A stretch of 64,000 bases of DNA from Escherichia coli (GTDB lineage Bacteria; Pseudomonadota; Gammaproteobacteria; Enterobacterales; Enterobacteriaceae), in NCBI RefSeq assembly GCF_044324875.1, contig NZ_CP172185.1; one strand, given 5' to 3'. Made by a program: the position numbers and the translations under genes. Shown here piece by piece: positions 4,092 through 50,332 of the stretch. The notes beneath the pieces are model-generated. The model searched no databases. It was given only the letters and a program-made list of their open reading frames with translations, and was not told where the DNA came from. Positions within the stretch are counted from its first letter, which is position 1; each line of letters begins with the position of its first letter.

Positions 4092-4985
4092 TTACCAGCG
4101 ACCGGACGCGCCGCCACCGCCAGAAGAACCGCCCCCGCCGCTAAATCCGCCGCCACTTGAGCCGCCACCGGAAGAGGATGAAGAAGAACCTTTTCTTGAA
4201 GCTCTTTCTTTACTGAGTTTTTTGTATTTGGCGCGTAGCTTTTTATTAACGATAAGCCAAAAAATAACCAGTGGTACGATAGCAAAAGGCGTGAGCATAC
4301 CGCAGGCAACGATTAAATTCGTCCATGGTCCTGGCTCGGCAACATAGAGGAATACCATCCCATAAATTCCGCCAGTCAGTGCTATCCAGGGTAAATTCGA
4401 CGGATCGGTAAAAACAATAAAATATGAAAGTACCGCCAGCAATATAATTACAGCAAGCGATAATGGAATAGGGGGATTGATACTGTAATAATCCCCCCTG
4501 TCTTCCGGTAATTCACCATTCAACAGAAGCGCTCCGATATTTTCGCTTGCCAGTGTTAACCCACCCATCAAGTCATCACTTTTGAAGGCTGGGATTAATA
4601 TATTACGGATAATCTTCGCTGCTTGCAGATCGGTAACCACCCCTTCCAGCCCGTAGCCCACTTCTATACGGACAGCATGATCTTCCCAGGCAACCAGCAG
4701 TAAAATACCATCGTTTCGCTGCTTATCTCCCAGTTTCCAGCTATCAAAAACGCGTGTTGCATATTGTTCAATGGTATCGTCTCCGGTGGATGGCACTATT
4801 AATACGGCGACCTGGGCCCGTGTTTTTTGTGTGATATCCTGCAGCTGTTGTGTCAGTGATTGTTGTTCAGACGTGCTTAACGTACCAGTAATATCGGTCA
4901 CCTGTTGGCGCAGCTCCGGCACAGCAATTTGCTGGGCAAGCCCAGGAAGGCACCATAAAGTAAGTAGAAAAAAGATTAAGCGCAT
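4092..4985 (-). CDS. TPM-domain membrane protein (YgcG-like), paralog A
   Basis: 297 aa; signal peptide, TPM-type domain (VAVLIVPSTGDDTIEQYATRVFDSWKLGDK, ILLLVAWEDH), TM helices, Gly/Ser-rich C-terminal tail ending GGGGASGRW. Confidence 0.85.
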   Translation of the reverse strand: MRLIFFLLTLWCLPGLAQQIAVPELRQQVTDITGTLSTSEQQSLTQQLQDITQKTRAQVAVLIVPSTGDDTIEQYATRVFDSWKLGDKQRNDGILLLVAWEDHAVRIEVGYGLEGVVTDLQAAKIIRNILIPAFKSDDLMGGLTLASENIGALLLNGELPEDRGDYYSINPPIPLSLAVIILLAVLSYFIVFTDPSNLPWIALTGGIYGMVFLYVAEPGPWTNLIVACGMLTPFAIVPLVIFWLIVNKKLRAKYKKLSKERASRKGSSSSSSGGGSSGGGFSGGGGSSGGGGASGRW

Positions 4986-4990
4986 AATGA

Positions 4991-6139
4991 TTACCAGCGT
5001 CCGGATGAACCGCCGCCTCCTGAAGAACCACCACCACCGCGGAAAGAATTTCTCGACGAAGAGCGAGAATGAGCATTACGATTCCCCGTTTTCCTGTTGC
5101 TTTTTTCTCCTGACCCCAGTTTAAGATTGCCAGTAAATTTGGCCACAATGATCAGCAGAACTATGCCAGCAATGGTTATTGGGCCGATAAAATGATCAAT
5201 TAGCCCAATAATTGTTGAGATGAATGCAATATCTTTATTACTGGCGAACACCAGGCACCATCCCACAATAATTATCAGCATCACGACAAACAATGAATTT
5301 CGTCCTGATTCACGAACCTGCGGAGTCTTCTTTTGTTTTTTCACTTTAGTGTTTTTATTTTTGGGGGCCAGCATCATAGGAAATGCGCGGCACATATTAA
5401 AAACTACCGCGAGACGCTGCCAGCAGGTTGTTGCTAACAATAAACTAAAACAAACGACCGATACCCGCCGAATGATGACATCGTCCTGAAAGGAGAAAAA
5501 CCAGACCATAGGGGTAATCATCGATATCATCCATATGCCACGCCCTGGGCGGCTGGCAAATCGCCAGAGGACAACGATGGCAACGATCATCAGCAGTGTC
5601 CAGGCAAGACAAGGCAGCGAACGTTGCGGATTAGCAAACAGATGATTGGCTAAAGCATCCAAAGGGCTAAGGTTCGCTTTGATATGGGTAAACTGTGCGA
5701 TGCTTTCAATTCCGCCCGTTAATCCAGCAAAGAGATTGTTTTTTTCGAATTCTGGCTGCATATGGTAACGAACAATTTGCGCAGCTTGTTCCGGCGGCAA
5801 CATCTGTTCCAGTCCATGTCCAATCTTCATTGACGCCAGCCCTTCCGGCCATACGACGAGAATTAAGATACCTTCGCCATATCGCTTCTCTCCAACGGGT
5901 TTCCAGTGATATACCCCGTATCTCTGCGAGGCTGCAAGTTTAATGTTTTTGCCCCCTGTGGTCGGCGTGACCAACACGGCCACCTGGAAGTGGTTTTGCT
6001 GCACGAGAGTCTGTAATTGTTGAGTTAAAGCAGTTTGTTCTTCTGTCGTTAATGTCCCGGTTAAGTCAGTTACTGAAGGCAATTGTTCAGCGAATACCTG
6101 AAAACCGCATAGCATCAGAAGTAAGAGAAAAATACGCAT
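4991..6139 (-). CDS. TPM-domain membrane protein, paralog B with extra internal hydrophobic insertion
   Basis: 382 aa; signal peptide, divergent TPM domain, additional TM segments, C-terminal tail ending GGGGSSGRW. Confidence 0.8.
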   Translation of the reverse strand: MRIFLLLLMLCGFQVFAEQLPSVTDLTGTLTTEEQTALTQQLQTLVQQNHFQVAVLVTPTTGGKNIKLAASQRYGVYHWKPVGEKRYGEGILILVVWPEGLASMKIGHGLEQMLPPEQAAQIVRYHMQPEFEKNNLFAGLTGGIESIAQFTHIKANLSPLDALANHLFANPQRSLPCLAWTLLMIVAIVVLWRFASRPGRGIWMISMITPMVWFFSFQDDVIIRRVSVVCFSLLLATTCWQRLAVVFNMCRAFPMMLAPKNKNTKVKKQKKTPQVRESGRNSLFVVMLIIIVGWCLVFASNKDIAFISTIIGLIDHFIGPITIAGIVLLIIVAKFTGNLKLGSGEKSNRKTGNRNAHSRSSSRNSFRGGGGSSGGGGSSGRW

Positions 6140-6153
6140 ATCAATTCCTTTTG

Positions 6154-7047
6154 TTACCAGCGCCCGGAAGCGCCACCGCCACCAGATGAACCGCCACCAC
6201 CGCTGAAATTGTCATTGTTGAATGAAGAGGATGACGATGATGAATAGTGGGAGGAAGAATTGCTTCTTGTATGGCGTGATGGCTGGTTGGCATCACGCAT
6301 CGAATCCCGAACCTTTTTGCCGAAGGGGGTAAAAGCGATGGCGACAGCCAGGAACGGTGTGGCGAAGCAGAGTAATGTTGCGAGTACTCCCCAGCTTCCG
6401 CTGAAGCCTGCTATAGGTAAAACAAAGGCCAGTACAATAGCTGCGAAGCAAATTACTCCCAGCGTTTTGATATATCCTCTGGCAGAAATAAACGTCAGTA
6501 CTATCGCCCAGACTAACAAAGCCCACCAACCGCTAAAAGGCAAAGGGTGATCGGTCGGTGTTATCGTTGCTAAATTATTCCCCGTCAGACGACTTTCAAT
6601 ATCGCTGATTCCCTTTTGCAAACCACCAGCCAGGTCCCCTTTTTTAAATGCCGGAATAATACTGTTGCGAATAATTTTCCCGGACTGTGCATCCGTAATA
6701 ATACCTTCCAGTCCGTAACCGATTTCAATACGCACGGTATGATCCTGCCAGGCGACTAACAGTAGAACGCCATCATCGTGGTCTTTATCACCCGGTTTCC
6801 AGCTATCGAATACCCGCGTTGCGTACTGCTCGATGGTTTCATCGCCTGTTGTTTCAACCACTAACACGACCAACTGTGCGTTGTTTTTTTGCGTCAGGGC
6901 TTTAATCTGGTTGGTCAGGGTGTTTACTTCACTGTTTGTCAATGTGCCGGTTAAGTCATTCACATACCTGGGTGATTCAGGTACTGGAATTTGTGTGGCA
7001 AACACAGATGAACAGAAGAAAGCCATAAGGAAGATAAAATTTCGCAT
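6154..7047 (-). CDS. TPM-domain membrane protein, paralog C
   Basis: ORF 6154..7077; start moved to internal ATG at 7047 (MRNFIFLMAFF signal peptide, GGGGAAG 4 nt upstream); tail ends GGGGASGRW. Confidence 0.8.
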   Translation of the reverse strand: MRNFIFLMAFFCSSVFATQIPVPESPRYVNDLTGTLTNSEVNTLTNQIKALTQKNNAQLVVLVVETTGDETIEQYATRVFDSWKPGDKDHDDGVLLLVAWQDHTVRIEIGYGLEGIITDAQSGKIIRNSIIPAFKKGDLAGGLQKGISDIESRLTGNNLATITPTDHPLPFSGWWALLVWAIVLTFISARGYIKTLGVICFAAIVLAFVLPIAGFSGSWGVLATLLCFATPFLAVAIAFTPFGKKVRDSMRDANQPSRHTRSNSSSHYSSSSSSSFNNDNFSGGGGSSGGGGASGRW

Positions 7048-25550: not shown

Positions 25551-25815
25551 AATATCGTACCGCTTAATAAACGTCTCTGTCTGAAAAGATGGGGGCGTTT
25601 TTATTTTGCGAGCAGCATTCCTGATTTTAAACGTGAACGCCGCTGGAAGAATTATCAAGTATAGAATGGCGTTGGGTGCTTGAGGCTGTCTGGCGTTAAG
25701 CATTCGCGAGGTTCCAGATGGACAAAAGCCCCAGGCGATATTTCTATCAACCTGAGGCCAGCGTTCGAACCTAAGCAATTCGAATGTTAGTCTCTTCTTT
25801 GCAGGGAGGCAAGAC

Positions 25816-25968
25816 ATGCTGACAAAATATGCCCTTGTGGCAATCATCGTACTGTGTTGTACAGTACTGGGATTCACGCTGATGGTAGGCGACTCGTTGT
25901 GTGAGTTGAGTATCAGAGAACGTGGTATGGAGTTTAAGGCAGTTCTCGCTTACGAATCGAAGAAGTAG
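25816..25968 (+). CDS. Hok/Gef-family type I toxin (50 aa)
   Basis: Not in ORF track (<60 aa). ATG 25816 preceded by GGGAGG; product [50 protein letters not shown] has the Hok architecture (single TM then DSLCEL..); followed by ACGCGGGG-loop-CCCCGCGT hairpin (25974..25995). Confidence 0.75.
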
Positions 25969-45368: not shown

Positions 45369-46730
<1,362 letters not shown>

Positions 46731-46869
46731 AACGTGAGGAAATACCTGGATTTTTCCTGGTTATTTTGCCGCAGGTCAGCGTATCGTGAACATCTTTTCC
46801 AGTGTTCAGTATGGTGCCTTGCACGGTAATTATGTCACTGGTTATTAACCAATTTTTCCTGGGGGATAA

Positions 46870-48009
46870 ATGAGCGCGGGAAGCCCAAAATTCACCGTTC
46901 GCCGCATTGCGGCTTTGTCACTGGTTTCGCTATGGCTGGCAGGCTGTTCTGACACTTCAAATCCACCGGCACCGGTCAGCTCCGTTAATGGCAATGCGCC
47001 TGCAAATACCAATTCTGGTATGTTGATTACGCCGCCGCCGAAAATGGGAACGACGTCTACAGCGCAGCAACCGCAAATTCAGCCGGTACAGCAGCCACAA
47101 ATTCAGGCTACTCAACAACCGCAAATCCAGCCAGTACAGCCAGTAGCTCAGCAGCCGGTACAGATGGAAAACGGACGCATCGTCTATAACCGTCAGTATG
47201 GGAACATTCCGAAAGGCAGTTATAGCGGCAGTACCTATACCGTGAAAAAAGGCGACACACTTTTCTATATCGCCTGGATTACTGGCAACGATTTCCGTGA
47301 CCTTGCTCAGCGCAACAATATTCAGGCACCATACGCGCTGAACGTCGGTCAGACCTTACAGGTGGGTAATGCTTCCGGTACGCCAATCACTGGCGGAAAT
47401 GCCATTACCCAGGCCGACGCAGCAGAGCAAGGAGTTGTGATCAAGCCTGCACAAAATTCCACCGTTGCTGTTGCGTCGCAACCGACAATTACGTATTCTG
47501 AGTCTTCGGGTGAACAGAGTGCTAACAAAATGTTGCCGAACAACAAGCCAACTGCGACCACGGTCACAGCGCCTGTAACGGTACCAACAGCAAGCACAAC
47601 CGAGCCGACTGTCAGCAGTACATCAACCAGTACGCCTATCTCCACCTGGCGCTGGCCGACTGAGGGCAAAGTGATCGAAACCTTTGGCGCTTCTGAGGGG
47701 GGCAACAAGGGGATTGATATCGCAGGCAGCAAAGGACAGGCAATTATCGCGACCGCAGATGGCCGCGTTGTTTATGCCGGTAACGCGCTGCGCGGCTACG
47801 GTAATCTGATTATCATCAAACATAATGATGATTACCTGAGTGCCTACGCCCATAACGACACAATGCTGGTCCGGGAACAACAAGAAGTGAAGGCGGGGCA
47901 AAAAATAGCAACCATGGGTAGCACCGGAACCAGTTCAACACGCTTGCATTTTGAAATTCGTTACAAGGGGAAATCCGTAAACCCGCTGCGTTATTTACCG
48001 CAGCGATAA
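46870..48009 (+). CDS. nlpD: Murein hydrolase activator lipoprotein NlpD (LysM + degenerate M23)
   Basis: 379 aa; lipobox LAGCS; Gln/Pro-rich repeats; C-terminal M23-like domain; the rpoS promoter is known to lie within this gene (established knowledge, not resolved here). Confidence 0.95.
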
Positions 48010-48071
48010 TTCGGCGGAACCAGGCTTTTGCTTGCTAGTTCCGTCAAGGGATCACGGGTAGGAGCCACCTT

Positions 48072-49064
48072 ATGAGTCAGAATACGCTGAAAGTTCATGA
48101 TTTAAATGAAGACGCGGAATTTGATGAGAACGGAGTTGAGGTTTTTGACGAGAAAGCCTTAGTTGAAGAGGAACCCAGTGATAACGATTTGGCTGAAGAG
48201 GAGCTGTTATCGCAAGGGGCCACACAGCGTGTGTTGGACGCGACTCAGCTTTACCTTGGTGAGATTGGTTATTCGCCACTGTTAACGGCCGAAGAAGAAG
48301 TTTATTTCGCGCGTCGCGCACTGCGTGGAGATGTCGCTTCACGTCGCCGGATGATTGAAAGTAACCTGCGTCTGGTCGTGAAGATTGCCCGCCGTTATGG
48401 CAATCGTGGTCTGGCGCTGTTGGACCTGATCGAAGAGGGCAACCTGGGGCTGATCCGCGCGGTAGAGAAGTTTGACCCGGAACGTGGTTTCCGCTTCTCA
48501 ACATACGCAACCTGGTGGATCCGCCAGACGATCGAACGGGCGATTATGAACCAAACCCGTACTATTCGTTTGCCGATTCACATCGTAAAGGAGCTGAACG
48601 TTTACCTGCGAACCGCACGCGAGTTGTCCCATAAACTGGACCACGAACCAAGTGCGGAAGAGATCGCAGAGCAACTGGATAAGCCAGTTGATGACGTCAG
48701 CCGTATGCTTCGTCTTAACGAGCGCATTACCTCGGTAGACACCCCGCTGGGTGGTGATTCCGAAAAAGCGTTGCTGGACATCCTGGCCGATGAAAAAGAG
48801 AACGGTCCGGAAGATACCACGCAAGATGACGATATGAAGCAGAGCATCGTCAAATGGCTGTTCGAGCTGAACGCCAAACAGCGTGAAGTGCTGGCACGTC
48901 GATTCGGTTTGCTGGGGTACGAAGCGGCAACACTGGAAGATGTAGGTCGTGAAATTGGCCTCACCCGTGAACGTGTTCGCCAGATTCAGGTTGAAGGCCT
49001 GCGCCGTTTGCGCGAAATCCTGCAAACGCAGGGGCTGAATATCGAAGCGCTGTTCCGCGAGTAA
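48072..49064 (+). CDS. rpoS: RNA polymerase sigma factor RpoS
   Basis: 330 aa; sigma-70 family regions 2-4. Confidence 0.97.
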
Positions 49065-49184: not shown

Positions 49185-49592
49185 CTATTTGCTCATCATC
49201 TTGCGCACCAGCTGCATAAACAGCTCCTGCTCTTCTCCACTCAAACGCCCCAAAAATTCCGCATCCACACTGTCACCAATCGGTATCGCCGCAGCAAGTA
49301 CCTTTTCTCCTTCGGCAGTCAGCCAGACAAAGCGTCGCCGCTTGTCAGCGGCGTCATGTTCACGTCTGACTAAGCCACGATTTTCCATTCTTGCCAACAT
49401 TTCTGCCAGCGTTGCTTTGGTGCTGACTGCTGCTTCTATCAGTGCCGCCTGTTCGATACTAGGCTTATCAGCAATGGCGCGCATCACCGCGTACTGTGGT
49501 TTGGTGAGGTCAGGTAACTCGTGCTGCCAGCGAGCCGTGTGCTGCTGAAAAAGCTGTCGTAACTGATGGAACGCTTTATTTCGTAACGCCAT
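49185..49592 (-). CDS. MarR/SlyA-family transcriptional regulator
   Basis: ORF 49185..49625; probable start ATG 49592 (MALRNKAFHQL, GGAG 8 nt upstream), alternative 49625; winged-HTH core. Confidence 0.8.
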   Translation of the reverse strand: MALRNKAFHQLRQLFQQHTARWQHELPDLTKPQYAVMRAIADKPSIEQAALIEAAVSTKATLAEMLARMENRGLVRREHDAADKRRRFVWLTAEGEKVLAAAIPIGDSVDAEFLGRLSGEEQELFMQLVRKMMSK

Positions 49593-49707
49593 GTAAACTC
49601 CGGGCAAACTATCTGCCGCTATCATAGCGGTTTTTCAGTGACGAAGAAGATGTTGTTACTTTTCAGTGCTTGCCGCGATGAAAACAGAGGCGTATTTTAA
49701 TAATAAC

Positions 49708-49738: not shown

Positions 49739-50332
49739 ATGAGACTGATCGTCGGGATGACAGGGGCTACCGGTGCGCCTCTTGGGGTGGCATTACTGCA
49801 AGCGCTGCGGGAGATGCCGAATGTCGAGACTCATCTGGTGATGTCGAAGTGGGCGAAAACCACCATTGAACTGGAAACGCCTTACAGCGCTCGCGATGTT
49901 GCTGCCCTCGCAGACTTCAGTCATAACCCGGCGGATCAGGCGGCGACCATCTCCTCAGGTTCCTTTCGTACCGACGGCATGATCGTTATTCCGTGCAGTA
50001 TGAAAACGCTCGCCGGTATCCGTGCCGGTTACGCCGATGGCCTGGTAGGGCGCGCGGCGGACGTCGTGCTCAAAGAAGGCCGCAAACTAGTGCTGGTGCC
50101 GCGTGAAATGCCGCTTAGCACCATCCATCTCGAAAATATGCTCGCACTTTCACGCATGGGCGTGGCGATGGTGCCGCCGATGCCTGCCTTTTATAACCAT
50201 CCCGAAACGGTAGATGACATTGTCCACCACGTGGTAGCCCGCGTGCTGGATCAATTTGGCCTCGAACATCCTCACGCCAGGCGCTGGCAAGGATTGCCGC
50301 AGGCCCGGAATTTTTCTCAGGAGAATGAATAA
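49739..50332 (+). CDS. UbiX/Pad1-family flavin prenyltransferase (decarboxylase B subunit)
   Basis: 197 aa; MRLIVGMTGATGAP flavoprotein N-terminus. Confidence 0.88.
   Translation: MRLIVGMTGATGAPLGVALLQALREMPNVETHLVMSKWAKTTIELETPYSARDVAALADFSHNPADQAATISSGSFRTDGMIVIPCSMKTLAGIRAGYADGLVGRAADVVLKEGRKLVLVPREMPLSTIHLENMLALSRMGVAMVPPMPAFYNHPETVDDIVHHVVARVLDQFGLEHPHARRWQGLPQARNFSQENE

Follow-up and report, generated by a model that had tools for sequence, protein, structure and literature searches.

A Gln/Pro tandem repeat in the linker of the Escherichia coli lipoprotein NlpD: a likely flexible spacer with rare in-frame length alleles

Introduction

The nlpD gene of Escherichia coli encodes a murein hydrolase activator lipoprotein, and a run of Gln- and Pro-rich tandem repeats lies inside its coding sequence. 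Two questions are raised by this locus: whether the repeat changes its length between strains, and what it does for the protein that carries it. An earlier note, made from the letters of a 64-kb stretch of one E. coli genome (64,000 nt of contig NZ_CP172185.1, hereafter the window, to which all unlabelled coordinates refer), had described the repeat as prone to slippage and had set a comparison of copy number between strains as the test.

The repeat itself is already known, with literature reaching back to 1994. The title of Ichikawa et al. 1994 (cited in PMC2736372) already mentions a Gln/Pro repeat, the Pro/Gln-rich repeat region of NlpD was described by Tidhar et al. 2009 (PMC2736372), and the disordered linkers of NlpD have been under discussion since 2017–2021. 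The repeat analysed here is nothing different in kind from the one in those two papers; it lies in the same gene, at the same surE-pcm-nlpD-rpoS locus, and is the same Pro/Gln-rich N-terminal repeat. What we add is modest, namely a catalogue of natural slippage alleles together with their frequencies.

Results

The repeat is part of the NlpD linker between lipobox and LysM

The open reading frame at 46870–48009 (+; 379 aa plus stop) is nlpD. Its product carries a lipobox and matches the Pfam profiles for LysM and Peptidase_M23, and it is identical in sequence to the entry named NLPD_ECOLI. The gene is flanked by pcm upstream (46104–46730, +; Pfam PCMT, 3e-83) and by rpoS downstream (48072–49064, +; Pfam Sigma70 regions r1_2, r2, r3 and r4). 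The gene order in the window is truD-surE-pcm-nlpD-rpoS, and the RefSeq annotation likewise gives surE, pcm, nlpD and rpoS. At the DNA level, nlpD matched RefSeq regions annotated nlpD in 5,421 of 5,426 complete E. coli genomes.

Read from the translation, the lipobox LAGC occupies residues 23–26 (46936–46947, +), with Cys26 as the lipidated residue; G25 and C26 are invariant in an alignment of 32 NlpD orthologues. It is followed by an N-terminal linker (residues 27–122; 46948–47235, +) with many P, Q, S, T and N residues (Q17, P15, S9, T8 and N8 among 96), by the LysM domain (residues 123–165; 47236–47364, +; PF01476, E = 2.7e-12) and by a probably degenerate LytM/Peptidase_M23 domain (residues 279–372; 47704–47985, +; PF01551, E = 4.6e-33). 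Active M23 enzymes carry H-x-x-x-D and H-x-H motifs; by eye, the NlpD domain reads NKGID and RLHFE at these metal-ligand positions. The repeat was indeed found in frame inside this 379-aa reading frame, and translation and Pfam together place it between the lipobox and the LysM domain, both as the earlier note had claimed.

A minor observation concerns the annotated start of the gene. Many RefSeq records begin nlpD at an internal TTG at 46915, 45 nt downstream of 46870, which gives a protein of 364 rather than 379 aa. This start, noted at the loci L001, L002, L003 and L004, cuts off the positively charged beginning of the signal peptide and is probably a start-codon miscall. The 364-aa annotation makes a second large NlpD protein cluster with 1,425 members. 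Alternative start calls, along with length variants, inflate the number of NlpD clusters in protein databases.

Three imperfect octads are followed by a degenerate tail

The repeat spans 47065–47163 and encodes residues 66–98 in frame (33 aa, or about 4.1 unit lengths). Its limits had previously been put at 47064–47163, which is right within one base, 47064 being the last base of the Ala65 codon. Where about five copies had been counted, there are three full units of 24 nt (8 aa) and a degenerate 9-aa tail (QPV-AQQPVQ). The unit had been given as QQPQIQP(V/A), which fits R1 (47065–47088, +; CAGCAACCGCAAATTCAGCCGGTA) and R3 (47113–47136, +; CAACAACCGCAAATCCAGCCAGTA), both encoding QQPQIQPV, but not R2 (47089–47112, +; CAGCAGCCACAAATTCAGGCTACT), which encodes QQPQIQAT. 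The tail begins with a QPV triplet (47137–47145, +; CAGCCAGTA) that repeats the last 9 nt of R3 exactly and in tandem, and continues with AQQPVQ (47146–47163, +; GCTCAGCAGCCGGTACAG). The last 12 nt of the tail (47152–47163; CAGCCGGTACAG) are an exact copy of 47080–47091, 72 nt upstream. Among the 33 residues of the repeat, 16 are Gln, 7 Pro, 4 Val and 3 Ile.

Tandem Repeats Finder reported a repeat of period 24 at 47068–47132 (2.7 copies, 70% matches) and one of period 9 at 47128–47145 (+; 2 copies, 100% match). The latter is the QPV-QPV tandem, two copies of CAGCCAGTA, where the +9 and −9 nt alleles described below fall. The lag-24 self-match over 72 nt was 44, the highest in the window (mean 19.5, s.d. 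4.0; about 6 s.d. above the mean), and this statistic rules out a chance low-complexity match as the origin of the repeat. The units are far from identical as DNA, with 21/24 matches between R1 and R3, 17/24 between R1 and R2 and 15/24 between R2 and R3. R1 and R3 encode the same peptide and differ by three synonymous codon differences only; R2 differs from R1 by two synonymous and two non-synonymous codon differences. Mapping of the exact direct repeats of at least 8 nt in the segment gave a 12-mer, an 11-mer, a 9-mer and an 8-mer whose copies stand 72, 48, 24 and 60 nt apart, respectively, together with a 9-mer repeated in tandem.

Such a pattern of differences bears on whether the repeat acts as protein or as nucleic acid. 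rpoS is co-transcribed with nlpD and is also transcribed from within nlpD, so that DNA internal to nlpD can be regulatory, and the peptide repeat could in principle be a by-product of a regulatory element or RNA structure for rpoS expression. We find this hardly credible. Most of the codon changes from unit to unit are synonymous, a sign of constraint at the protein level; no sigma-70-like promoter site was found in 46650–48150 and no Rfam family at the repeat, and the RNA fold of the repeat is no better than that of shuffled sequences (z = +0.51). The main rpoS promoter is reported to precede the rpoS start by about 567 nt; it would fall near 47505, roughly 340 nt downstream of the repeat, and this also counts against such a role.

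Nearly all E. coli genomes keep three octads

Copy number was compared among complete E. coli genomes by allele-specific searches, in which short junction-centred queries were used that are unable to seed on both sides in the normal allele. Length variants were found in 15 of ~5,419 genomes (0.28%, a lower bound in which the designed allele classes are counted): seven genomes carry a −9 nt allele, four a +9 nt allele, two a −48 nt allele and two a −72 nt allele. Records H268–H272 were counted as SNP variants; the sampled EA7 and UTAK-6 have an annotated nlpD of normal length. The junction search gave no hit among the ~5,419 complete genomes for the −24 nt allele (R2R3 form) or for the R2-to-R1 duplication junction. 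In a spread sample of the hits of a 531-nt query, 58 of 59 full-length matches did not differ from the query in length, and the remaining one, from strain 2014C-3061, was short by 9 nt. Alignment revealed that strain 2014C-3061 has lost exactly one CAGCCAGTA. In strain Z142-6, a clean in-frame deletion of 72 nt between the two copies of the 12-mer CAGCCGGTACAG has reduced the array to a single QQPQIQPVQ. The in-frame variants refute invariance of copy number, the outcome that was to have spoken against the earlier note, and more than 99% of genomes keep an identical length, i.e. three octads. It is unlikely that the variants are sequencing or assembly artefacts, because 15 of them sit in finished genomes.

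Separately, the 5′ region of nlpD had no match at all in 5 of 5,426 complete genomes, and in a sixth, E. coli O55:H7 DEC5A (H60), the sole match was a spurious 49 nt in another gene. A few finished genomes seem to be without this part of nlpD.

Predicted slippage products were built on the reference protein background and looked up as exact full-length sequences among ~15 billion proteins. Nine of the 14 exist exactly, in E. coli or Shigella assemblies, and range from one to five octads. The +QPV allele (382 aa) was present on 234 contigs, the −16 aa allele (363 aa) on 160 and the −QPV allele (376 aa) on 83. The −8 aa allele (371 aa) occurs in an R2R3 form on 25 contigs and in an R1R3 form on 1 contig, and the −24 aa allele (355 aa) on 20 contigs plus 38 on a second background. 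The −20 aa (359 aa), +16 aa (395 aa) and +8 aa (387 aa) alleles were found on 14, 6 and 3 contigs, respectively. Since the −QPV and −24 aa alleles each stand on two protein backgrounds, they arose, or were transferred, more than once.

The other five products (the tail form of the −8 aa allele, R1R2R2R3, R1R2R3R3, the +18 nt allele, and the +72 nt allele on the ATG-start background) had no exact full-length match among the ~15 billion proteins, which is weak evidence of their absence. The +24 aa (+72 nt) allele, the reciprocal of the −72 nt allele, exists as the protein P0039 with a different annotated start. The longest allele seen is a 405-aa NlpD with seven octads in the Escherichia-like assembly GCA_026283405.1, where the 72-nt three-unit block is present 2.5 times with 96% identity (locus L005, 2688–2864).

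The repeat behaves as a low-rate, low-polymorphism minisatellite

Every exact repeat of at least 8 nt in the segment corresponds to an observed indel class. The repeat behaves as an in-frame minisatellite of low rate and low polymorphism, whose natural alleles are predictable from the map of exact repeats. The gain and loss alleles of natural E. coli arise by replication slippage or unequal recombination between the internal direct repeats. Because the units have diverged synonymously, the longest perfect repeats are only 8–12 nt, which offers slippage little to act on. The length of every unit is divisible by three, and the reading frame is therefore kept in every event. The three-copy allele may predominate because this divergence keeps slippage infrequent and because stabilizing selection on linker length removes most variants. 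The earlier claim of a slippage-prone repeat whose length differs between strains stands insofar as in-frame variants exist with breakpoints exactly on internal direct repeats. However, these variants are rare and, because the units do not match one another perfectly as DNA, "prone to slippage" is true in a weak sense only.

VNTR-like coding minisatellites of bacterial surface and envelope proteins share with the nlpD repeat head-to-tail copies, a unit that is a multiple of three, a strain-variable copy number and breakpoints in repeat homology, but the nlpD repeat is far less polymorphic. Its low polymorphism is due to the synonymous divergence of the units, and it is therefore of little use as a typing marker.

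A series of natural alleles from one to seven octads, some of them recurring on different backgrounds, might also be expected of a contingency locus, in which phase or antigenic variation would allow rapid adaptive switching of NlpD length. We consider this very improbable here. Slippage of 24- and 9-nt units never shifts the frame, the units are imperfect (15–21/24 identical, longest exact repeat 12 nt), length variants at the lower-bound frequency given above leave more than 99% of complete genomes with the identical length, and the three-copy state is common to E. coli, E. fergusonii and unclassified Escherichia. Contingency loci, or phase-variable simple sequence repeats, are marked by perfect short repeats that shift the frame or alter a promoter and by high polymorphism, which is not what the nlpD repeat shows.

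Linker length is kept across Enterobacteriaceae

The best 120 cluster representatives in a protein search were all NlpD orthologues and all came from Enterobacteriaceae. Among these, E. coli, E. fergusonii and unclassified Escherichia have three clean octads, and a clean array was seen in Escherichia only. In Citrobacter, Salmonella, Enterobacter, Kosakonia, Lelliottia and others the segment is degenerate and Q/P/V/T-rich; it still starts with a PQIQPV-like motif and ends in QPV..QPVQ. Within the repeat region, Q90 and V97 are invariant across genera in the 32-sequence alignment, and Q71, Q87 and P96 are nearly so. The linker from Cys to LysM has a median length of 92 aa (range 79–102) in 104 non-Escherichia representatives and is typically 96–97 aa in Escherichia. 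Linker length thus stays in a narrow band across Enterobacteriaceae, though the sequence degenerates outside Escherichia. In the comparison of Tidhar et al. 2009 (PMC2736372), E. coli and Salmonella have the Pro/Gln-rich repeat, and all Yersinia NlpD proteins are without the region.

Length differences were also noticed within two other species. In Citrobacter freundii (P0085 versus P0069/P0113), a cluster of 362 aa and 284 members misses 13 aa between two QIQPV motifs, and among the Kosakonia cowanii clusters P0107-P0114 the number of QPV triplets varies, with linkers of 90 versus 96 aa. Repeat-mediated indels of this type are thus seen in other genera as well.

Discussion

Taken together, we think it likely that residues 66–98, an imperfect in-frame tandem repeat within the linker of the outer-membrane lipoprotein NlpD, serve as a flexible spacer. 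The repeat peptide would be flexible and probably extended (polyproline-II-like), which would let lipid-anchored NlpD reach the septal peptidoglycan, and, like the remaining linker, it may assist in Lol-dependent sorting. How long it is and what its general composition is would count for more than the exact copy number.

Published work on the linker is consistent with such a role. The N-terminal linker of NlpD was predicted to be disordered by DISOPRED (Tsang et al. 2017, PMC5533458). In El Rayes et al. 2021 (bioRxiv 10.1101/2021.01.05.425367), the linker was needed for efficient Lol-dependent outer-membrane sorting and for function: deletion of residues 29–64 left ~60% of NlpD in the inner membrane and impaired cell separation. 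This deletion ends just before the repeat (66–98), so that the octads were retained. The repeat-bearing linker resembles the disordered linkers of the outer-membrane lipoproteins treated in that study (RcsF, Pal and NlpD) in its post-lipobox position, low complexity and predicted disorder; for the RcsF linker, length and disorder mattered and sequence did not.

In the PDB, no structure covers NlpD N-terminal of residue ~235, and the relatives EnvC and DipM match only ~235 to 379. An AlphaFold2 model made from 32 aligned sequences, each sharing at least 81% identity with the query, had a mean pLDDT of 35 and values below 50 almost everywhere, including residues 1–119; pLDDT was also below 50 for the known M23 fold, and the model was therefore set aside as evidence for or against disorder. 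A comparable spacer occurs in TonB, whose Pro-rich periodic (Glu-Pro)n/(Lys-Pro)n region runs from the membrane anchor to the functional domain, and is presumed to be extended and to determine how far TonB reaches through the periplasm. Unlike these charged dipeptides, the NlpD octads are made of uncharged Gln, Pro, Val and Ile; the anchoring membrane also differs, and a rigid NlpD repeat is without support.

The main rival to a spacer is a sequence-specific interaction motif, by which the octads would mediate midcell recruitment or bind a partner or peptidoglycan, with copy number setting avidity. All three units share an identical QQPQIQ core, which is the same throughout Escherichia species, being kept in E. 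fergusonii and unclassified Escherichia, and R1 and R3 arrive at the same peptide through three synonymous differences; this hints at selection that may act on the peptide sequence itself, beyond length alone. The PQIQPV start and QPV..QPVQ end retained across genera, with Q90 and V97 invariant, point in the same direction, as does the weak midcell enrichment of NlpD(1–115) alone (PMC5533458). However, natural single-octad alleles (355, 359 and 363 aa) exist in finished genomes and on contigs that number from dozens up to 160, most other genera are without clean octads, and Yersinia NlpD is without the region entirely (PMC2736372). On this evidence we regard an interaction motif as unlikely and keep a flexible spacer as the preferred reading.

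A more specific form of the spacer can be put forward only tentatively, and we rate it as rather improbable. The octad array could act as a length-setting "ruler" for the reach of LysM and dLytM from the outer membrane toward septal peptidoglycan, and lineages with the rare natural alleles of one to seven octads could then differ measurably in AmiC activation and daughter-cell separation, or in how efficiently NlpD is sorted to the outer membrane. If this were true, the narrow linker band (median 92, 79–102 aa) would reflect selection matching the width of the periplasm. The natural series, with octad numbers of 1, 2, 3, 4, 5 and 7 and with one to three copies of QPV, offers material for asking whether linker length tunes reach, sorting and amidase activation.

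Neighbouring genes and other features of the window

Several observations concern the surroundings of nlpD. Directly after rpoS lie a MarR-family regulator gene (49185–49625, −) and a UbiX-like flavoprotein gene (49739–50332, +), and locus L005 has the same MarR/UbiX-like arrangement at its positions 4891–6218, plus a UbiD-family decarboxylase gene; the Pfam basis for the MarR and UbiX-like genes is their L005 homologues only. We take these genes to be a strain-variable insert of the rpoS-mutS region that is missing from K-12.

Three chimeric proteins, P0080 (560 aa), P0127 (550 aa) and P0122 (403 aa), are 100% identical to NlpD over 81–85% of its length, and their NlpD part is fused to UbiD-family or Sigma70_r4 sequence. 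This suggests that deletions in some assemblies join nlpD to genes beyond or within rpoS, which would make them rpoS-loss alleles.

Far from nlpD, the sole Rfam match in the window is a full-length sok antitoxin RNA at 25674–25831 (+; RF01794, bit score 111.7, gathering score 59), and it implies a putative chromosomal toxin-antitoxin locus of the hok/sok type.
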